This document shows positions 209 through 57,787 of a DNA stretch of 64,000 bases, one piece after another; position 1 is the stretch's first letter; every line of letters starts with the position of its first letter. Under the pieces are notes generated by a model, which did no database searches, was not told the DNA's origin, and saw nothing but the letters and a program-made list of their open reading frames with translations. The stretch lies in the NCBI RefSeq assembly GCF_058153355.1, contig NZ_CM177019.1; one strand, written 5' to 3'. Made by a program: the position numbers and the translations under genes.

Positions 209-3082
209 ATGACACAGACGTTAAGCCAGCTTGAAAACAGCGGCGCTTTTATTGAACGCCATATCGGACCGGACGCCGCGCAACAGCAAGAAATGCTGAA
301 TGCCGTTGGCGCACAATCGTTAAACGCGCTGACCGGCCAGATTGTGCCGAAAGATATTCAGCTTGCGACCCCGCCGCAGGTTGGCGCACCGGCGACCGAA
401 TACGCCGCGCTGGCGGAGCTCAAGGCTATTGCCAGTCGCAATAAACGCTTCACGTCTTACATCGGCATGGGTTACACCGCCGTGCAGCTACCGCCGGTTA
501 TTCTGCGTAACATGCTGGAAAATCCGGGCTGGTATACCGCGTATACTCCGTATCAACCTGAAGTCTCCCAGGGCCGCCTTGAAGCACTGCTCAACTTCCA
601 GCAGGTAACGCTGGATTTGACCGGGCTGGATATGGCTTCGGCTTCTCTTCTTGACGAAGCCACTGCTGCTGCCGAAGCAATGGCGATGGCAAAACGCGTC
701 AGTAAACTGAAAAATGCCAACCGCTTCTTCGTTGCTTCTGACGTGCATCCGCAAACCTTAGATGTAGTACGTACACGCGCAGAAACCTTTGGTTTTGAAG
801 TGATTGTCGACGATGCGCAAAAAGTTCTCGATCACCAGGACGTCTTCGGCGTGCTGTTACAGCAGGTTGGCACTACCGGTGAAATTCACGACTACACTGC
901 GCTTATCAGCGAACTGAAATCACGCAAAATTGTGGTCAGCGTCGCCGCCGATATTATGGCGCTGGTGCTGTTAACCGCGCCGGGTAAACAGGGCGCGGAT
1001 ATTGTCTTTGGTTCGGCGCAACGCTTCGGCGTGCCGATGGGCTACGGTGGCCCACATGCGGCATTCTTTGCGGCGAAAGATGAATACAAACGCTCAATGC
1101 CGGGCCGTATTATTGGTGTATCGAAAGATGCTGCGGGCAATACCGCGCTGCGCATGGCGATGCAGACTCGCGAGCAACATATTCGCCGTGAGAAAGCGAA
1201 CTCCAACATTTGTACTTCCCAGGTACTGCTGGCAAACATCGCCAGCCTGTATGCCGTTTATCACGGCCCGGTTGGCCTGAAACGTATCGCTAATCGCATC
1301 CACCGTCTGACCGATATCCTGGCAGCGGGCCTGCAACAAAAAGGTCTGAAGCTGCGCCATGCGCACTATTTCGATACTTTGTGTGTGGAAGTGGCCGACA
1401 AAGCGGGCGTGCTGGCGCGTGCCGAAGCGGCTGAAATCAACCTGCGTAGCGATATTCTGAATGCGGTTGGGATCACCCTTGATGAAACCACCACGCGCGA
1501 AAACGTGATGCAGCTTTTCAGCGTACTGCTGGGCGATAATCACGGACTGGACATCGACACGCTGGACAAAGACGTGGCTCACGACAGCCGTTCTATTCAG
1601 CCTGCAATGCTGCGCGATGACGAAATTCTCACCCATCCGGTGTTTAATCGCTACCACAGCGAAACCGAAATGATGCGCTATATGCACTCGCTGGAGCGTA
1701 AAGATCTGGCGCTGAATCAGGCGATGATCCCGCTGGGTTCCTGCACCATGAAACTGAACGCCGCCGCCGAGATGATCCCAATCACCTGGCCGGAATTTGC
1801 CGAACTGCACCCGTTCTGCCCGCCGGAACAGGCCGAAGGTTATCAGCAGATGATCGCGCAACTGGCTGACTGGCTGGTGAAACTGACCGGTTACGACGCC
1901 GTCTGTATGCAGCCGAACTCTGGCGCTCAGGGCGAATACGCGGGGCTGCTGGCGATTCGTCATTATCATGAAAGCCGCAACGAAGGGCATCGCGATATCT
2001 GCCTGATCCCGGCTTCTGCGCATGGCACTAACCCGGCTTCCGCGCATATGGCAGGAATGCAGGTGGTGGTTGTGGCGTGTGATAAAAACGGCAACATCGA
2101 TCTGACTGACCTGCGCGCGAAAGCGGAGCAGGCGGGCGATAATCTCTCCTGCATTATGGTGACCTATCCTTCCACCCACGGCGTGTACGAAGAAACGATC
2201 CGTGAAGTGTGTGAAATCGTGCATCAGTTCGGCGGTCAGGTTTACCTTGATGGCGCGAACATGAACGCTCAGGTTGGCATCACTTCGCCGGGCTTTATTG
2301 GCGCGGACGTTTCGCACCTTAACCTGCATAAAACTTTCTGCATTCCGCACGGCGGTGGTGGTCCGGGTATGGGACCGATCGGTGTGAAAGCGCATTTGGC
2401 ACCGTTTGTTCCGGGTCATAGTGTGGTGCAAATCGAAGGCATGTTAACCCGTCAGGGCGCGGTTTCTGCGGCACCGTTCGGTAGCGCTTCTATTCTGCCA
2501 ATTAGCTGGATGTACATCCGCATGATGGGCGCAGAAGGGCTGAAAAAAGCAAGCCAGGTGGCAATTCTTAACGCCAACTATATTGCCAGCCGCCTGCAGG
2601 ATGCCTTCCCGGTGCTGTATACCGGTCGCGACGGTCGCGTGGCGCACGAATGTATTCTCGATATTCGCCCGCTGAAAGAAGAAACCGGCATCAGCGAGCT
2701 GGATATTGCCAAGCGCCTGATCGACTACGGTTTTCACGCGCCGACTATGTCGTTCCCGGTGGCGGGGACGCTGATGGTAGAACCGACTGAATCTGAAAGC
2801 AAAGTGGAACTGGATCGCTTTATCGATGCGATGCTGTCTATCCGCGCAGAAATCGACCAGGTGAAAGCCGGTGTTTGGCCGCTGGAAGATAACCCGCTAG
2901 TGAACGCGCCGCACATTCAGAGCGAACTGGTCGCCGAGTGGGCGCATCCGTACAGCCGTGAAGTTGCAGTATTCCCGGCAGGCGTGGCAGACAAATACTG
3001 GCCGACAGTGAAACGTCTGGATGATGTTTATGGCGACCGTAACCTGTTCTGCTCCTGCGTACCGATTAGCGAATACCAGTAA
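209..3082 (+). CDS. gcvP: glycine dehydrogenase (decarboxylating), glycine cleavage system P protein
   Basis: ORF 125..3082; likely start is the internal ATG at 209 ([22 protein letters not shown]...), giving 957 aa with the PLP-dependent GcvP sequence. Confidence 0.95.
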
Positions 3083-3148
3083 TTTACTGATCCGACTATC
3101 TTCTAAAGGCGCTTCGGCGCCTTTGACACTGATGTCAAACTCAACATT

Positions 3149-3248
3149 GCCTGATACACCTCGTTTATCAGGCCTACATAGTCTGTGCAATGTATTGAAT
3201 TTGCACGATTTTGTAGGCTGGATAAGGCGTTCACGCCGCATCCGGCAT
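3149..3248. repeat. pair of REP (repetitive extragenic palindromic) elements in the gcvP-ygfF intergenic region
   Basis: gcctgatacacctcgtttatcaggcctac (3149-3177) and gtaggctggataaggcgttcacgccgcatccggca (3214-3248) match the E. coli REP consensus as recalled. Confidence 0.7.
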
Positions 3249-3277
3249 AATAAAAGCACTTTGTCATCAATAATTTG

Positions 3278-3305
3278 AAAGGCGCTTCGGCGCCTTTATT
3301 TTTTT
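3278..3305 (+). terminator. intrinsic terminator-like hairpin followed by a T-run
   Basis: aaaggcgcttcggcgccttt (perfect 8-bp stem, tetraloop) followed by atttttttt; an identical hairpin without T-run occurs at 3105-3124. Confidence 0.6.
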
Positions 3306-3315
3306 AGGAAAACAA

Positions 3316-4059
3316 ATGACTATAGCACTTGTGACCGGTGGCAGTCGCGGCATCGGGCGGGCAACTGCATTACTGTTGGCGCAAGAAGGATATACGGTGG
3401 CGGTTAATTATCAGCAAAACCGCCACGCAGCGCAGGAAGTTGTGAACTTAATAACTGAAGCAGGTGGCAAAGCGTTTGCGCTCCAGGCGGATATCAGTGA
3501 CGAAAATCAGGTCATCGCAATGTTTACAGCAATCGATCAGCACGATGAACCGCTAGCCGCGCTGGTCAATAACGCCGGGATCTTGTTTACCCAGTGCACC
3601 GTAGAAAACCTTACCGCAGAGCGAATCAACCGGGTACTTTCCACCAATGTGACGGGATATTTTCTCTGTTGCCGCGAGGCGGTAAAACGCATGGCGCTTA
3701 AAAATGGCGGTAATGGCGGTGCTATCGTCAATGTCTCTTCAGTGGCCTCACGGCTGGGATCTCCGGGGGAATACGTTGATTATGCGGCCTCGAAAGGGGC
3801 GATTGATACGTTAACCACCGGACTATCGCTGGAAGTCGCCGCGCAGGGGATCCGCGTTAACGGCGTGCGGCCAGGGTTTATTTATACCGAAATGCACGCC
3901 AGCGGTGGCGAGCCTGGACGCGTTGATCGCGTTAAGTCGAATATCCCCATGCAGCGTGGCGGACAGGCGGAAGAGGTCGCGCAGGCCATCGTCTGGCTGT
4001 TAAGTGATAAAGCCTCTTATGTCACGGGAAGTTTTATCGATTTGGCGGGTGGAAAATAA
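3316..4059 (+). CDS. ygfF: short-chain dehydrogenase/reductase family oxidoreductase
   Basis: 247-aa ORF with N-terminal TGGSRGIG Rossmann motif and SDR catalytic region; position downstream of gcvP as in K-12. Confidence 0.9.
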   Translation: MTIALVTGGSRGIGRATALLLAQEGYTVAVNYQQNRHAAQEVVNLITEAGGKAFALQADISDENQVIAMFTAIDQHDEPLAALVNNAGILFTQCTVENLTAERINRVLSTNVTGYFLCCREAVKRMALKNGGNGGAIVNVSSVASRLGSPGEYVDYAASKGAIDTLTTGLSLEVAAQGIRVNGVRPGFIYTEMHASGGEPGRVDRVKSNIPMQRGGQAEEVAQAIVWLLSDKASYVTGSFIDLAGGK

Positions 4060-6745: not shown

Positions 6746-6776
<31 letters not shown>

Positions 6777-6806
6777 TCTACCCCGGTTTCCCAGATTGCA
6801 GGCATG

Positions 6807-8185
<1,379 letters not shown>

Positions 8186-8207: not shown

Positions 8208-9188
8208 TTACTCTTCGAGCGAATACGGCAGCGGCTCGATATGCAATGTATTCATATCGTCGCGTACGCGGAAGATGCTGTCCGGTTCCATATCGTTATT
8301 CATGACGACCTGTACCACGACCTGACCATCTTCCAGTTTTACCGCAGCCAGCACCGTACCGGTACGACGCCAGTTCTCGCCCATTTTCAGCTCTAAATCT
8401 TCACCCGCTTCCGGCAGTCGGCTGGCGCTACCTGCCAGCAGCCAGAGGGCACGTTTGTTGGCACCGCGGAATTTAGCTCGTGCCACCATCTCTTGTCCGG
8501 TATAACAGCCTTTTTTAAAGCTGATGCCGCCCAGCGCCTGGAGGTTGGTCGCCTGTGGGATAAACTGCCCGCTGTTGGCGGCATCAATCACCGGAAAACC
8601 CGCTTCAATGTTTAATGCCAGCCACTGTTGGCTATTGTTCAGTTCCGCTTCACCGCGCAGTTTATCGGTCAGCGTATTGGCGGTAGCTTCATCGGTTACG
8701 ATCAGGAAACGTTCTGCTGGGTGTTCAAACCATAGCAGGGTAGTCGCACCTTCTCTGATAACCTGCTTTTCCTTCGAAGGTAATTCACTAAAGAGGTTAG
8801 CCAGCGCAGCGCGTGCCTGAAAACCGGCAACACCAAGCAGCACACGTTCATCGTCTGGCGCGATGGTCACTTTAGAGAACACCGCATATTTTTTCAGTTC
8901 AGTCAGTTGCGACTCGCGCACGCTGCGCCGTTCAATCCACGCAAAGCCATCGCCGTCGCGGAACAGACGTAAATTGCTCCACATTTTACCTTTGGCGTCG
9001 CAATGGGCGGCGAGCAGGTGCTGATCTTCTGTCATCTGGCTGACATCTGCTGTCACCTGACCCTGCATATATTTTTCGCTGTCCGTGCCAGTAATGGTGG
9101 CAAGCGCCCAGTCATCAAGCGTCATCAGCGTCAGCGGTAAACGGGCAGAAGCCGTAGGCTGACGGGGAGGAAAAGGTGTAAAAGCCAT
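8208..9188 (-). CDS. ygfZ: tRNA-modifying folate-binding protein YgfZ
   Basis: ORF 8208..9254; start assigned to the internal Met ([34 protein letters not shown]...), 326 aa. Confidence 0.9.
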
Positions 9189-9427
9189 AATGGAGTCCTG
9201 TTTTACAAACGGCGTATTTATGACTAATGGTAAAAGAGCTATGAGGCAATGCAAGTGCTTTCACTACGCGATCTGTGCCTTCTGATATGCTTTGCGAGGC
9301 GACTTCCAAAAAAATGAAGCCCTTGAAATATTGTGGGTTAATTTCGCGATCGCGATTGTGTTTACTGATATTCCCGCAAAAGAAGTCGAAAAACACGTTA
9401 CAATAGCCTGGTACTGGATTTTCGTGA

Positions 9428-10094
<667 letters not shown>

Positions 10095-10133
10095 AGATGA
10101 CGGCAAAGGCTGTGTGCTAAGCCGTCAGTGACA

Positions 10134-10655
10134 TCAGGCGTAATGCTCTGCCATTTCGTTGAGGATTTGCTCGCACCAGCTCTGAATACGCTCGTCGCTA
10201 AGGTCATACTGGTTAGTTTCGTCCAGTGCCAGACCCACGAACAGTTGCCCGTCAGCAATCACCGGTTTCGGGCTGGTAAACTCATATCCTTCCGTTGGCC
10301 AGTAGCCGACGAACTTCACGCCTTTGGTCGAGAGTTTGTCATGCAGCATGCCGAGCGCATCGAGGAACCACTCGCCGTACCCCAGTTGATCGCCAAGCCC
10401 ATACAGCGCAACAATTTTACCTTCGAGATTCAGGTCGTCGAGCTGATCCCAGACGGCTTCCCAGTCTTCCTGGATTTCGCCAAAATCCCAGGTCGGGATA
10501 CCCAGAATGAGCACATCGTACTGCTCCATTAATTTCGGGGAGTCGTCCTTGAGGTTATGTAAGGTCACCAGTTCTGGGCCGATAATATCGCGGATTTTTT
10601 CTGCCGCCATTTCGGTATAACAGGTGCTGGAACCATAAAAAAGACCCATATTCAT
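10134..10655 (-). CDS. fldB: flavodoxin 2
   Basis: 173-aa [26 protein letters not shown]..., long-chain flavodoxin. Confidence 0.9.
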
Positions 10656-52706: not shown

Positions 52707-52780
52707 GCGGGCGTAGTTCAATGGTAGAACGAGAGCTTCCCAAGCTCTATACGAGGGTTCGATTCCCTTCGTCCGCTCCA
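52707..52780 (+). tRNA. glyU: tRNA-Gly (anticodon CCC)
   Basis: 74-nt sequence gcgggcgtagttcaatggtagaacgagagcttcccaagctctatacgagggttcgattcccttcgtccgctcca with cloverleaf arms and encoded CCA; the island starts immediately 3' of it. Confidence 0.92.
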
Positions 52781-52944
52781 AACAAACATTTCTCAACGTC
52801 TACTAAAGTCCATCAAACCCACGAGTATCAAGCCTTCCAGCCATTTTCATAGTTTATTAACGTCTACTCACAACTACCAGAATCTACACACAGAAGTGTA
52901 TAGTAATGCGTATAGGACAAAATTTATTTTTTGGAGCTATACAC

Positions 52945-54309
52945 ATGCTGCTTTCAGACCTTGCCATCAGGCGCGCGAAGCCGAAAGAAAAGGCTTATAC
53001 ACTCAATGACGGTAACGGGCTTTCGTTGCTCATTGAGCCGAACGGTTCGAAAGGGTGGCGACTGCGCTACAGGTTTGCAGGAAAGCCCAAAATGTTGTCG
53101 TTGGGTGTGTACCCTGATGTGTCTCTGTCTGATGCCAGGGCGGCAAGGGATGAGGCTAAAAGGCTTCTTGCTGGTGGTATAAATCCAAGTGAGGCCAGAA
53201 AAGCCCAAAAGCGAGAACAGGCGAGCAAATTTGGCAATACTTTTGAGGGTATCGCTCGCGAATGGTACGAAAAGCGGATCGACAGGTGGTCATCGTCATA
53301 CGCCGAGGAAATGATCGAGACGTTTGAAAAAGACGTTTTTCCGTACATTGGCGGTAGGCCGATCGCAGAAATTAAGCCGATGGAATTGCTGGCGGTTCTT
53401 TCCCGTCTTAATGACCGTGGTGCGACTGAAAAATTGCGTAAGGTTCGCCAGCGATGTGGCGAGGTGTTCCGGTACGCAATCATCACCGGACGCGCCGAAT
53501 ATAATCCAGCCCCTGACCTGGTGAGCGCATTTGCTCCACATAAAAAAGAGCATTACGCCTGTTTGAAGGCCGATGAACTGCCGGAATTTTTCCGCGTTTT
53601 TAATACGTACACCGGAAGCCAGATCGTCAAACTGGCAATGCGGCTATTAATTCTGACAGGTGTCAGACCCGGGGAATTACGGCAGGCAGAATGGCGGGAG
53701 ATCGATTTTGATAATCGTTTGTGGGAAGTGCCTAAAGAACGAATGAAGATGCGCCGTCCGCATTGCGTGCCATTACCAGAACAGGCGATAAAAATACTGG
53801 AGCAGTTAAAAAACATGACAGGTCAGTATCAGTTTATTTTCCCCGGTCGTATTCACCACAGTAAACCAATGAGTGAAATGGCAATGAATGTGCTCATTCG
53901 TCGTATTGGCTACGCCGGGCGCGTTACTGGTCATGGATTCCGGCACACCATGAGCACCATTTTGCATGAGCAGGGCTATAACACCGCGTGGATAGAGACA
54001 CAGCTTGCGCACGCCGATAAAAACTCAATTCGTGGCACATACAACCATGCGCAATATCTGGATGGCAGACGCGAAATGCTCCAGTGGTATGCCGACTATA
54101 TGGATTCGCTCGAGCATGGCGGAAATGTGGTGCATGGTGAGTTCGGAAAATGCGGGGGACTGGTTGAGTATACAGTAGTAGACTTTGAGCGACTAAAAAC
54201 GGCTGTGTCTAGGGTCGCTCCTGAAAACCCGTACACCTCTGCGGGCTGGCACAGCCACTATGGTAGAGGGCGCGAGGTGACGCGTGATCGATATTGCCGA
54301 ATTACTTAA
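52945..54309 (+). CDS. int: tyrosine-type site-specific integrase, P4-like (tRNA-associated)
   Basis: ORF 52906..54309; start assigned to ATG 52945 with GGAG 8 nt upstream (MLLSDLAIRRAKPKEKAYTLNDGNGLSLLIEPNGSKGWRLRYRF...); C-terminal catalytic residues (HGFRHTMST, Y in GTYNHAQY). Confidence 0.9.
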   Translation: MLLSDLAIRRAKPKEKAYTLNDGNGLSLLIEPNGSKGWRLRYRFAGKPKMLSLGVYPDVSLSDARAARDEAKRLLAGGINPSEARKAQKREQASKFGNTFEGIAREWYEKRIDRWSSSYAEEMIETFEKDVFPYIGGRPIAEIKPMELLAVLSRLNDRGATEKLRKVRQRCGEVFRYAIITGRAEYNPAPDLVSAFAPHKKEHYACLKADELPEFFRVFNTYTGSQIVKLAMRLLILTGVRPGELRQAEWREIDFDNRLWEVPKERMKMRRPHCVPLPEQAIKILEQLKNMTGQYQFIFPGRIHHSKPMSEMAMNVLIRRIGYAGRVTGHGFRHTMSTILHEQGYNTAWIETQLAHADKNSIRGTYNHAQYLDGRREMLQWYADYMDSLEHGGNVVHGEFGKCGGLVEYTVVDFERLKTAVSRVAPENPYTSAGWHSHYGRGREVTRDRYCRIT

Positions 54310-54604
54310 CGCAGAAAAGAATAATTTCATTAGCCTGAGAGAGTTAATAGAGCGTATTAAATTATCTCAACCGAAAGCTACTACATCCCAGATAGTAAGT
54401 TTTCTTTATCAGACGCGGCAGAAATTACCCGAATGGGTTAAGTGGGATGAAATGATGGGCATTGAGCAAACATCGGAGAATCCTTTTGATGGGGATTGGT
54501 CTTTATCAGAGGTTCTTGAAGGCATTTTAAGACTAGGCTTTGTGCCAGAGGTTGAAGATTCTGTACCCCTCGCTATCGATGATAGCGACGATATTCCGTA
54601 TTGA
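54284..54604 (+). CDS. hypothetical protein (106 aa, AT-rich gene; GTG start, overlaps int 3' end)
   Basis: ORF with SD-like gagg upstream of GTG 54284; no recognisable domain; start uncertain. Confidence 0.45.
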   Translation: MIDIAELLNAEKNNFISLRELIERIKLSQPKATTSQIVSFLYQTRQKLPEWVKWDEMMGIEQTSENPFDGDWSLSEVLEGILRLGFVPEVEDSVPLAIDDSDDIPY

Positions 54605-54623
54605 TGAAGACTTAAGGTGAATT

Positions 54624-55067
54624 ATGGCAGATGAAGTTTATTTGGCTCGTGCTTGTGATAAGTATGGTTTTCGTCGAGCAGAGCTTAAAGAATTTGCTGA
54701 AAAACTAGGGGTTAATTTATTTTCCCCAATGGATGAAATAACCCAGTCCATTCCTGAGGTTGCTGCTAGTGATTCTTTGAATAATGGGCCGACTGTTGAT
54801 GAATTACGTGCGGAAATTGCTTTACTTAAAGCGCGAATTGAAGAACTTGAAAGCGAACGACCAATTCTCTTAAATAAATACAGGGATAATGATCCGCTAT
54901 ATCTGGCTATCGAGATTAGAAACAGAGAGTGGGCCAATTACGACCCGGAGAATGATCGCGCCACCAGGGGAAACCAGGGCGCGATTACTACTGAGCTTGA
55001 AAAACGAGGTTTTACCTCCCGACAGGCCGCATCTATTGAGCTTGTCGCCTGTCCTATCAAACGATGA
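54624..55067 (+). CDS. hypothetical protein (147 aa, predicted coiled-coil segment)
   Basis: ATG with SD aaggtga 7 nt upstream; heptad-like VDELRAEIALLKARIEELESE; no recognisable domain. Confidence 0.55.
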   Translation: MADEVYLARACDKYGFRRAELKEFAEKLGVNLFSPMDEITQSIPEVAASDSLNNGPTVDELRAEIALLKARIEELESERPILLNKYRDNDPLYLAIEIRNREWANYDPENDRATRGNQGAITTELEKRGFTSRQAASIELVACPIKR

Positions 55068-55072
55068 AGCCT

Positions 55073-55219
55073 TACCCTAGAGGTATCTCATGTTTTGTTC
55101 GCGTCTCACCCTAAGGGTAATCAGACCTCACCCTTAGGGTATTTTTGTATGCTTTCCCATCAATTTTACTATTACCCTTAGGGTAAAAATATTCCCGATT
55201 ACCATTAGGCCTGAGGGTA
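55073..55219. promoter_or_regulatory. array of palindromic operator-like sites (consensus ACCCTwAGGGT) upstream of alpA
   Basis: Sites at 55073-55085 (taccctagaggta, imperfect), 55109-55119 (accctaagggt), 55130-55140 (acccttagggt), 55174-55184 (acccttagggt) and a half-site gagggta at 55213-55219. Confidence 0.6.
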
Positions 55220-55287
55220 TGAAAATATTCGTTATTTCTGTGCCATGATTACCTCGTCAAATTGAGTAGACGTTATGAGGTAAATAT

Positions 55288-55485
55288 ATGTCAAATACGC
55301 TTATTCGTTTAACGGAAGTTCAGCGTAGAACTGGATATAGCAAGGCATGGATTTATCGCCTTATGGGGCAAGGTAAATTTCCTGCATCAGTTAAAATTGG
55401 CTCGCGAGCTATTGCTTTCGTTGAGAGTGAAATTGACGAGTGGATTAATCAGCGTATTGCTGAATCACGCGGAACAGCTACCTGA
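55288..55485 (+). CDS. alpA: AlpA-family phage/island transcriptional regulator (excisionase-like HTH)
   Basis: 65-aa ORF MSNTLIRLTEVQRRTGYSKAWIYRLMGQGKFPASVKIGSRAIAFVESEIDEWI..., strong SD gaggtaaa. Confidence 0.85.
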   Translation: MSNTLIRLTEVQRRTGYSKAWIYRLMGQGKFPASVKIGSRAIAFVESEIDEWINQRIAESRGTAT

Positions 55486-55563
55486 TTAAATGGCTACGGG
55501 GCCAGAAGCCCCAGCTATCCACCAGCAAATAAAAAGTAACTTAATTCGATAGCAGGAGTTTTT

Positions 55564-56364
55564 ATGAAATTTCCAAAAACGCCCATACAGGGGCAGGGCT
55601 TCGTTCGGCTTGAAAACCAGAATCTGCAAAATTTTGGCAAAATTATCCCGGTTATTTCCGGCGTTATTGGCGGGCGTGAAACCAATATTGTTAGCGCCAG
55701 AGCGTTGCATAAGGCGCTCGGGGTAGGCCGTGATTTCACAACCTGGATTAAAGTACGCATTGATGAGTACGGATTTAAAAAGGGCGTGGATTTTGAATTC
55801 GTAGAAAATTTGACCTCCCCCAATCCGGTGAGCGCAAAATCTCGCCAACGTATAGAGCACGACTACCTGAGCACTATCAACATGGCGAAAGAACTGGCGA
55901 TGGTCGAACGCACCGAACAGGGCCGCGCCGTTCGTCAGTATTTCATCAAATGCGAGGAGGAGCTACACAAGGTAGCGCCTGTGCGTTCCGCAGCGTTACG
56001 CCGGGAACTGAAAGCCCGTATCACTGTTGCCAGCTACTTTAAGCCAATGTGCGCCGCGCTGGAGGCGTACCGGGCAGAACTGGGTAAAAACACTCTACAG
56101 CACCACTACACCACGGAAGCTAATATGCTGGCGCGTATCGTGCTGGGTGGCATGACTGCAAAACAGTGGGCACTGGCGAACGGCATCACAAGCGAACCAC
56201 GCGACCACATGAGCACGTTGCAGCTTGAGCACCTTTCTTACCTTGAGCAGAGCAATATCACGCTGATTGAGTTAGGCCAGGACTACCACCAGCGGAAAGC
56301 TGAATTAATTCGTCTTTCGCAGCGCTGGTTAGCCCGTCGCATGGAGGAAAACAACCATGTGTAA
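55564..56364 (+). CDS. phage antirepressor-like protein (AntA/KilAC-type domains)
   Basis: 266-aa ORF with SD aggag; N-terminal region resembles AntA/Bro-type antirepressor domain; assignment by recall, moderate confidence. Confidence 0.6.
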   Translation: MKFPKTPIQGQGFVRLENQNLQNFGKIIPVISGVIGGRETNIVSARALHKALGVGRDFTTWIKVRIDEYGFKKGVDFEFVENLTSPNPVSAKSRQRIEHDYLSTINMAKELAMVERTEQGRAVRQYFIKCEEELHKVAPVRSAALRRELKARITVASYFKPMCAALEAYRAELGKNTLQHHYTTEANMLARIVLGGMTAKQWALANGITSEPRDHMSTLQLEHLSYLEQSNITLIELGQDYHQRKAELIRLSQRWLARRMEENNHV

Positions 56365-57018
56365 CGCTCTGACCGTTACAAAAAGAGAAAGCGCCCCGTT
56401 GCCGGAGCGCCTTTGTGAACGAATAGCCTACTGCGCCATATTGCTTACTGTCTACGAGGCAGATTATAGCGTTGTGGTCGCACAGAGTGAAGGCACTGAT
56501 CACCGTTACTACAGCACGCCAGAAATGCAGAATATTTTGCTGCAAAATGCCGCTGGCCACGCTGTCCGGAAAGCAAAAAATTTTGCTGGTGGCGCGACTG
56601 ATACGATTTTTTCTGGTCGCCAGGTGCTGATCAATCTGATGTCTGATTTCGTTCTGGATAAAACAAAGGCGACCGCAGAGGGCCACCAGTGGGAAAGCTA
56701 CACACTTGAACACATCGCCAACAATGCCAGATTTGCGGCTGGTGGGCAATGTGATCAGTGTGTTGGCTTGCTGGTGGGCTGTTCGTCTGGTTCAGTCCGT
56801 TGCCATGCATGGAGTGAACGCATTTTCCAGGAATACTCTTTGAGGTACTTCTCAAGAGCAAACGCACACGGGGCGAATCTCTCCGGTTCATGTTCGTTTA
56901 CCGCATTTTTGCGTTGTTTTTTCCTGGATGAGGATAATTTCTTTAATGATTTGTCAGTCATCGTATATACCTGTAACCCTGTGCGCCACAGTTCACTGCA
57001 CCACGGCGCTGATGGTGA

Positions 57019-57198
57019 TTACTCTGATTCTTTGGCCTTGCGGCGCTGGCGGCGTTTGATCTCACCTTCAAGTGCCGAAACGATAAATTGTCCAGTGCTT
57101 TCGCCTTCTTCCTTTAAACTTTCTACAGCGTCAGCTATTGCATGGGGTACTCGTGCCTCAAGTTTTTTTGATTTTCCATTAACTGCTTTCGTTGCCAT
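57019..57198 (-). CDS. ribbon-helix-helix (CopG/Arc-like) DNA-binding protein
   Basis: 59 aa MATKAVNGKSKKLEARVPHAIADAVESLKEEGESTGQFIVSALEGEIKRRQRRKAKESE; beta-strand then two helices typical of RHH; SD aaggga upstream; divergent from the promoter at 57260-57288. Confidence 0.6.
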   Translation of the reverse strand: MATKAVNGKSKKLEARVPHAIADAVESLKEEGESTGQFIVSALEGEIKRRQRRKAKESE

Positions 57199-57219
57199 AT
57201 CTGATTCCCTTGTTATTAG

Positions 57220-57299
57220 GTGGCTGACAGTATACACACAAGAAAATGGAAAAACACTATTGACGTGGCTGACACCTGTTACTAGTATAGTGGCTGACA
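57220..57299 (+). promoter_or_regulatory. near-consensus sigma70 promoter (TTGACG-17 bp-TAGTAT) overlapped by three direct repeats GTGGCTGACA
   Basis: -35 ttgacg 57260-57265, -10 tagtat 57283-57288; direct repeats at 57220-57229, 57265-57274 and 57290-57299. Confidence 0.6.
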
Positions 57300-57562
57300 C
57301 CTTTATTAAGGTAATCGATGAAAAGACAAAGCCCGCAGGCGCTACCAACACCAACGGGCTTCTAACCACCAACGATAGAAAGCGTATCGAGGTAGCTATG
57401 TTAAATCATACCACACACCCGCAAGGGCGGGACTCGCACAACCTGAATAAAGCGGGGGTAAAAAACCAGTTGATCGCCACTGCCAGCCAGGGCTATGATT
57501 TATCTGCACCAGCAAAATCTGGTGCCCGGATTGGCGTCCTGAAAATTCTGAAGGCGACATAT

Positions 57563-57584
57563 GACGCGCCGAGCGTCTTTTTTT
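57563..57584 (+). terminator. intrinsic terminator-like hairpin plus T-run inside the leader downstream of the promoter
   Basis: gacgcgccgagcgtc (5-bp stem) followed by ttttttt. Confidence 0.45.
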
Positions 57585-57787
57585 ATGTCGTAGGTCTGAC
57601 TCACCCATTTTTTGGGCGTTGGTGTATAATCCAGCGCCTTTGTCAATCAATGGTGGCTCAGGCGGGGGCTTCTTCGGAAGCGCCGGTATCCTTCAGAGCC
57701 GGTTACGCCAACCCTGTCTGGGCTACCACCAGCGAAATTGGCGTTTCCGGTGGTAGCGTAACCTGCTATCTGAAGGAGGCTGCCGAC

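Follow-up and report, generated by a model that had tools for sequence, protein, structure and literature searches.

We are highly confident that the 11-mer ATCAGGCCTAC at positions 3167-3177 (+ strand) of the 64-kb window, i.e. of the whole stretch of E. coli DNA analysed here, represents the conserved foot of a y-type REP within a BIME-1 unit and, in addition, a functional attachment site of IS621 that is currently vacant. The window is the empty allele of a site used in nature: in E. coli 2017-02-2CC, IS621 has inserted at the corresponding position. The earlier note had called the 11-mer an unoccupied IS621 target, and this label is supported by the occupied allele of that strain, by the split 11-mer at the flanks of the IS621 copy resident in the window, and by the canonical guides of that copy.

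The target of IS621, ATCAGGCCTAC (alternatively ATCGGGCCTAC) with a CT core at positions 8-9, occurs exactly and only once on both strands of the window, as ATCAGGC-CT-AC in the + strand context ...GCCTGATACACCTCGTTTATCAGGCCTACATAG..., and its core at 3174-3175 would be the point of strand exchange. As had been claimed, it lies in a REP between gcvP and ygfF, with the gcvP stop at 3082 and the ygfF ATG at 3316 according to the annotation of the nearest complete genome. This REP is a short y-type palindromic unit (3149-3177, + strand) with the target as its 3' foot, identified by its inverted repeat and its identity to a REP query. It comprises the imperfect palindrome GCCTGATACAC/GTTTATCAGGC at 3149-3173, with 11-nt arms (3149-3159 and 3163-3173) that are 91% complementary, followed by CTAC at 3174-3177, all in extragenic position, in agreement with the REP pattern of an imperfect palindrome of 20-40 nt that terminates in CTAC/GTAG. 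A published short y-type REP of similar length, GCCTGATGCGCTACGCTTATCAGGCCTACG (PMC11208160), is identical to it at 24 out of 30 positions. The loop of the REP is degenerate, and the three bases 3' of the 11-mer read ATA.

A match of this kind could in principle be a coincidence unrelated to REPs or to IS621. In dinucleotide-preserving shuffles the 11-mer was found 0.02 times on average, and a copy arose by chance in 2 out of 100 shuffles. This reading is already refuted, as the 11-mer belongs to a palindromic REP of an identifiable BIME-1 and is used by IS621 in another strain, and we assign a negligible probability to it. If up to one mismatch was allowed, 4 matches were counted in the window compared to 0.53 expected. 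This excess arises because the 11-mer belongs to the REP consensus, and nothing specific to IS621 is needed to account for it. The one-mismatch site that the earlier note had placed in the downstream REP was confirmed by mismatch search and REP context as ATCCGGCCTAC at 8100-8110 (+ strand) in a z-type REP at 8077-8110. It deviates at target position 4 and represents a plausible IS621 target, though one that is much less favoured than the y form.

The y REP is part of a 153-bp BIME-1 unit (3125-3277, + strand) that consists of a 24-nt left arm, the y REP, a linker, a z REP and a 31-nt right arm. BIME-1 is defined as a y REP and an inverted z REP with a long L linker, which carries an IHF site in this class (PMC3333891). 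The spacer contains these parts in single copy, namely the y REP at 3149-3177, an inverted z-type REP at 3213-3246 (− strand), whose foot ATCCAGCCTAC is two mismatches away from the target, and a long conserved linker between them. The L-type linker of 35 nt (3178-3212) was assigned by a match to Rfam ES036/CssrF on the minus strand (3170-3212; 43.2 bits, gathering score 37.6) and by alignment to other BIME-1 linkers; it may contain the putative IHF site of the unit. An IS621 insertion at 3167-3177 would cut the ES036/CssrF-like element (3170-3212). A weak naRNA4 match is located at 3216-3257. The unit is approximately 80% alignable, over its full length, to a 151-bp unit that other strains carry at prohibitin-tkt, and it is absent as one block in strain MFDS1022581. 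On both sides it is bordered by the gcvP terminator stem-loop AAAGGCGCTTCGGCGCCTTT, which forms an exact 20-nt direct repeat on the + strand (3105-3124 and 3278-3297). A T-run is found at the second copy only: the first copy was not scored as a terminator, and the second, followed by ATTTTTTT, is the only terminator-like site in the spacer.

The window also carries the element for which the 11-mer would serve as a target. An IS621 isoform of 1282 nt, including both CT cores (8030-8029 and 6750-6749), is located at 6749-8030 on the minus strand within a y REP between trhA and ygfZ. Its minus-strand flanks read ...CGCGTCTTATCAGGC-CT/TGTATTATCC...AACAGTAT-CT/ACAAAGG (the slash follows the core), and if the element is taken out, ATCAGGCCTAC is restored in the y REP downstream of ygfZ. 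The occupied y REP (8031-8062, − strand), delineated by the junction and the REP pattern, adjoins the left end of IS621 with its foot ATCAGGC-CT and is included in a full-length naRNA4/REP-pair match at 8030-8107. This match to naRNA4, a REP325-type pair of y and z REPs, was obtained on both strands and stops exactly at the left IS621 junction, from which it follows that IS621 abuts the REP-pair unit without splitting it.

The nucleotide identity of the resident copy to annotated IS621 copies is 97.6-99.6%. It matches annotated IS621 elements in 2244 out of 5426 complete E. coli genomes, mostly with 97.6% identity, and matches of at least 99% were found in only 5 of the 5426, i.e. it represents a rare isoform. 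Genomes carrying IS621 do so at a median of 5 places, and 110 of the 5426 have an insertion at the trhA-ygfZ site. The recombinase gene (6856-7836, − strand) is intact and encodes 326 amino acids, four of which differ from the canonical copy. Both of its domains, PF01548 (DEDD_Tnp_IS110, 1.8e-24) and PF02371 (Transposase_20, 3.9e-26), score above the curated cut-offs; the element thus possesses the DEDD RuvC-like N-terminal domain and the C-terminal serine domain of the IS110 family.

Upstream of the recombinase gene, a bridge RNA region of 178 nt (7837-8014, − strand) was assigned by correspondence to the published bridge RNA, and the definitions given by Durrant et al. 2024 (PMC11208160) were used to locate the guides. 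Both target guides, on the left ATCGGGCCT (7965-7957) and on the right GTAG (7937-7934, preceded by TGC), lie on the minus strand and are identical to the canonical copy, as are the donor guides ACAGTATC and CAAG; all four strings (LTG, RTG, LDG, RDG) are therefore unchanged. In RNA form the target guides read AUCGGGCCU and GUAG, and pairing of the target with them is complete apart from the known G:T at position 4. Only 3 differences to the canonical bridge RNA were found; they are confined to the small hairpin that separates the target guides and leave the predicted fold unchanged. They comprise a G to A and a C to T exchange and one extra C at bridge RNA positions 60-67 (window 7935-7960, minus strand), by which the stem is lengthened. 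A search of the bridge RNA region against Rfam matched no family at the gathering or the E-value threshold. The predicted circle junction of this copy consists of TTGCAG, a 17-nt spacer and TATTAT. The resident copy is presumably active.

A mechanistic model of the insertion can be taken from the literature. IS621 is an IS110-family element which employs a bridge RNA and excises scarlessly as a circle, whose RE-LE junction forms the donor ACAGTAT-CT-TG as well as the bridge RNA promoter, and the bridge RNA pairs with both target and donor (PMC11208160). At the site described here, the right target guide GUAG would pair with the top strand CTAC and the recombinase would exchange strands at the CT core, so that after insertion the left end would adjoin ATCAGGC-CT and the right end would be followed by CT-AC. 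The site is presumably accessible in the host cell of the window. An insertion at 3174/3175 would be co-oriented with gcvP and would disrupt no gene, as is the case in 2017-02-2CC.

We used a synthetic junction, in which 120 nt of the window, up to and including ATCAGGCCT, were joined to the first 120 nt of the IS, to search the 5426 complete E. coli genomes. An end-to-end match was obtained in exactly one genome, 2017-02-2CC, with 98.8% identity. There, an annotated IS621 gene is located between gcvP and ygfF, and the insertion spans 9121-10400 of the extracted locus L004. The left junction ...TTTATCAGGC-CT/TGTATTATCC, the right junction AACAGTAT-CT/ACATAGTCTGTGCAATG (with ACATAGTCTG after the core) and the orientation of the element are those predicted from the 11-mer. 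The REP at the occupied site differs from the REP of the window by a single base, and the two IS621 copies differ at 6 out of 1282 nt and have the variant hairpin in common.

The trhA-ygfZ site of 2017-02-2CC is empty and reads ATCATGCCTAC. While the backbones of the window and of this strain are 97.4-97.8% identical, the IS copies are 99.5% identical, and one rare isoform has therefore inserted independently, and rather recently, into two REPs at a distance of 3.6 kb. The hopping of a single IS copy between both sites is not favoured, as trhA-ygfZ in 2017-02-2CC reads ATCATGCCTAC and not the restored target, and the backbones differ by 2.2-2.6%. Two strains with a near-identical isoform, each with an empty site where the other is occupied, thus provide a tidy natural illustration of alternative REP sites, and this reciprocal occupancy confirms that the published specificity of IS621 operates in wild genomes. 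At both occupied sites IS621 is positioned just downstream of a gene (ygfZ, 8208-9254 on the minus strand, and gcvP, respectively), co-oriented with it and with the left end first. Read-through from these genes could consequently express bridge RNA and recombinase without circle formation.

The occupied allele also bears on the question whether the 11-mer might be a mere REP foot that is refractory as a target in this context, be it due to an inactive resident copy, to masking by IHF or BIME proteins, or to the degenerate hairpin. Neither the window nor any of the 8 complete genomes with an uninterrupted BIME allele, including N96 with its 21-22 IS621 places, has an insertion at the site; the isoform of the window deviates from the canonical element by 4 amino acids and 3 bridge RNA bases; and the extended GCA pairing, which marks the most-used sites (PMC11208160), is missing after the target. 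Set against this, the same rare isoform with the same variant hairpin has inserted exactly here in 2017-02-2CC, into a REP with one base difference, and the guide sequences are unchanged. We therefore consider a refractory site unlikely, and the reading as a functional vacant target is retained, with the qualification that the empty state of all 8 uninterrupted carriers indicates a rare use of the site.

The vacancy itself could also have a history, namely if a former IS621 was excised from 3167-3177 and ATCAGGCCTAC was restored. As excision in the IS110 family is scarless (PMC11208160), the product would be indistinguishable from a never-used site, and near-identical IS621 copies are present in the window, at a distance of 3.6 kb, and at the equivalent position in a related strain. 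Yet 8 uninterrupted alleles, in backgrounds with up to 7% divergence in the spacer, are found for 1 occupied allele, and the 99.5% identity of the IS copies compared to 97.4-97.8% of the backbones indicates a recent insertion in the lineage of 2017-02-2CC rather than repeated loss. A past excision is accordingly improbable, even more so than a refractory site.

The orientation of the two sites has a possible structural consequence. Relative to the resident copy, an insertion at 3174/3175 would be inverted, so that the 3.6-kb ygfF-trhA segment could become inverted as well. An event of this kind was not seen when the first 12 kb of the window were compared to relatives. The suggestion of the earlier note that REPs mediate rearrangements found no support, as these 12 kb are colinear between the window and both relatives, and no rearrangement attributable to REPs or to IS621 was detected in this comparison. 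In R32_14_1F, the closest relative of the window (L002, 9960-11723), two hypothetical genes are found between trhA and ygfZ instead of the REP cluster and IS621. Elsewhere in the window a tRNA-Gly(CCC) gene (52707-52780) is followed by matches to int-alpA RNA (54202-54269), isrK (57506-57583) and C4 antisense RNA (57646-57733); on sequence grounds, 52707-57733 looks like a P4/P2-type integrated element at a tRNA gene.

To characterize natural landing sites, metagenomes were scanned with the IS621 left end (its first 35 nt), which yielded 59 contigs, most of which break inside the IS and retain the host flank. Clustering was performed on the distal 35 nt of the flank, since the nearest 40 nt represent the REP itself and merge different loci. 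The 59 left junctions correspond to 31 distinct sites, and 18 of the 31 read ATCAGGCCT. The others deviate from it by 1-2 substitutions or lack a single base; among them, ATCGGGCCT, which is exactly complementary to the guide, was found once, and 2 out of 31 read the z-REP variant ATCCGGCCT (L036, in a z REP, and L059). A REP palindrome is located upstream at most of the distinct junctions. In the six natural copies with both ends assembled, joining the flanks rebuilds ATCAGGCCTAC in five cases and ATCGGGCCTAC in one. Copies of IS621 flanked by unrelated sequence, which the earlier note had named as an observation that would speak against its proposal, were not present among the 31 distinct left junctions. 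In a collection of species-representative genomes, no match to the left end of IS621 was obtained.

Empty sites of the y form ATCAGGCCTAC and the z form ATCCGGCCTAC were counted 11 and 12 times, respectively, in 487 kb, and 3 and 7 times in 200 kb of E. coli DNA. As both are similarly common when empty and the junctions are mostly of the y form, the latter seems to be preferred about ten-fold, which is a rough estimate. The mismatch at position 4 is known to be tolerated as rG:dT, where the guide G accepts a target A (PMC11208160). Empty exact 11-mers occur approximately once per 50 kb of E. coli DNA, which agrees with the 129 BL21(DE3) sites with ATCAGGCCTAC hit by IS621 (Durrant et al. 2024, PMC11208160) and by far exceeds the median of 5 IS621 places in genomes that carry the element. 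The idea that REPs provide many potential landing sites per genome therefore holds, both by the density of empty exact sites and by the 129 sites used in BL21(DE3). In the same study, 144 out of 173 insertion sites were in REPs (Durrant et al. 2024, PMC11208160).

The gcvP-ygfF locus varies among E. coli strains. An uninterrupted spacer was found in only 8 of the 5426 complete genomes (92.8-100% identity), in addition to the occupied one of 2017-02-2CC. In 4 of these 8 carriers the sequence was checked: R32_14_1F is identical to the window over the whole spacer, EC42405 and 06-00048 keep the exact 11-mer, and ws5-3 reads ATCAGGACTAC at this position. In three further genomes the spacer measures 60 nt and contains a single terminator hairpin but no BIME, and a synthetic BIME-less allele matches all three as a single 240-nt piece. 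Three nested states of the locus are thus observed, i.e. the terminator only, the terminator with a 173-bp block containing the 11-mer, and the latter with IS621. In O157:H7 strain 1130 (L003) ygfF is missing, and bglA directly follows gcvP. In K-12 the arms of this spacer are similar, but the repeat between them is a different one. Compared to window positions 3083-3315, the K-12 spacer (L001, 584-849) shows similar outer arms, a decayed second hairpin and, in place of the two REPs, a G+C-rich repeat which we take to be box C-like. The T-run retained by its left hairpin copy points to an independent insertion at this same terminator.

A further hint towards the origin of the landing site arises from the terminator hairpin. 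The 173-bp block that is present or absent at gcvP-ygfF corresponds to the 153-bp BIME-1 unit (3125-3277) plus the second, exact copy of the 20-nt hairpin. In the prohibitin-tkt spacer of FDAARGOS_144, AAGGGCCGCTTTCGCGGCCCTT (22 nt, exact) is found on both sides of the 151-bp unit, and other strains have a precise single-hairpin allele there, which is also 173 bp shorter. The same layout occurs at yddM-fdnI and yqjG-yqjF, where the two hairpin copies have diverged. The hairpin differs at each of these four unrelated loci. It ends 24 nt before the y REP at gcvP-ygfF, prohibitin-tkt and yddM-fdnI, and at yqjG-yqjF the copies border on the same arms of 24 nt and 30 nt. The loop sequence is the same in both hairpin copies, which identifies them as direct and not inverted repeats. 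Beyond the window, the hairpin-flanked units are located at L065 401-596, L067 about 405-590 and L070 4870-5068. The BIME-1 units were found by a linker-centred search, as a strict pattern for complete units missed known copies. Among six units with canonical arms, which represent a small sample, the hairpin duplication is clear in four, partial in one and absent in one; 200 kb of 2017-02-2CC contained only one further canonical unit.

These layouts look like a hairpin-sized target duplication, which may be generated when BIME-1 inserts next to a terminator. The short allele could alternatively result from deletion between the repeats, although the repeats themselves would still need an origin. 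According to a 2026 preprint the way in which REPs insert is not yet entirely clear. No description of a flanking hairpin duplication with precise empty alleles was found in the literature searched, which did not extend to older BIME papers, and we can only weakly suggest that it is new. That the duplication is a true footprint of BIME-1 insertion and at the same time previously undescribed seems possible, though we rather doubt it. If so, BIME-1 would insert at terminator stem-loops, unlike the duplication-free route of the IS200/IS605 type usually assumed for RAYT, and the locus would represent a nesting in three steps from terminator to BIME-1 to IS621, in which the landing pad itself was delivered by a mobile repeat. 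A reproducible hairpin duplication with matched empty alleles would provide BIME insertion with a concrete and testable footprint.

With regard to IS621, the finding of a vacant target is already known in kind and repeats earlier work. REP targeting by IS621 was reported by Choi, Ohta and Ohtsubo 2003 (J Bacteriol 185:4891), to the extent that this work is cited in PMC11208160, and Durrant et al. 2024 (PMC11208160) described the 11-mer, the guides and the use of REP sites across the genome. The vacant target as such therefore matters little, as knowledge of REP targeting dates from 2003 and that of the 11-mer rule with its bridge RNA basis from 2024; what the window adds for IS621 is only a new locus and a rare isoform. 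Compared to the published REP sites, the 11-mer with its CT core in the foot of a y-type REP, the guides and the anatomy of the occupied junctions are the same. There is no mechanistic difference, and the deviations are confined to a locus present in few lineages (8 uninterrupted and 1 occupied out of 5426) and to the rare isoform.

Among other systems, IS1397 and ISKpn1 of the IS3 family resemble IS621 in that they use REP/BIME repeats as extragenic safe harbours. They possess a DDE transposase, insert into the REP loop with target duplication and have no guide RNA. Their insertion in palindromic units of BIMEs is the subject of refs 10-12 of PMC3333891. ISPpu9 and ISPpu10 of Pseudomonas putida (PMC12288879; bioRxiv 10.64898/2026.03.19.712850) likewise belong to the IS110 family, insert into REPs and are guided by a bridge RNA; they differ from IS621 in host, REP family and guide sequences, and the bridge RNA architecture of ISPpu10 is described as distinct (bioRxiv 10.64898/2026.03.19.712850). 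The repeat unit of the window agrees with BIME-1, RIB and RIP (PMC3333891, PMC2817692) in its composition of y REP, L linker with putative IHF site and z1 REP, in being single-copy and in its position at the 3' end of a transcription unit, and it differs from them, as far as they are described in the literature searched, by the hairpin-sized direct duplication and the precise empty alleles.
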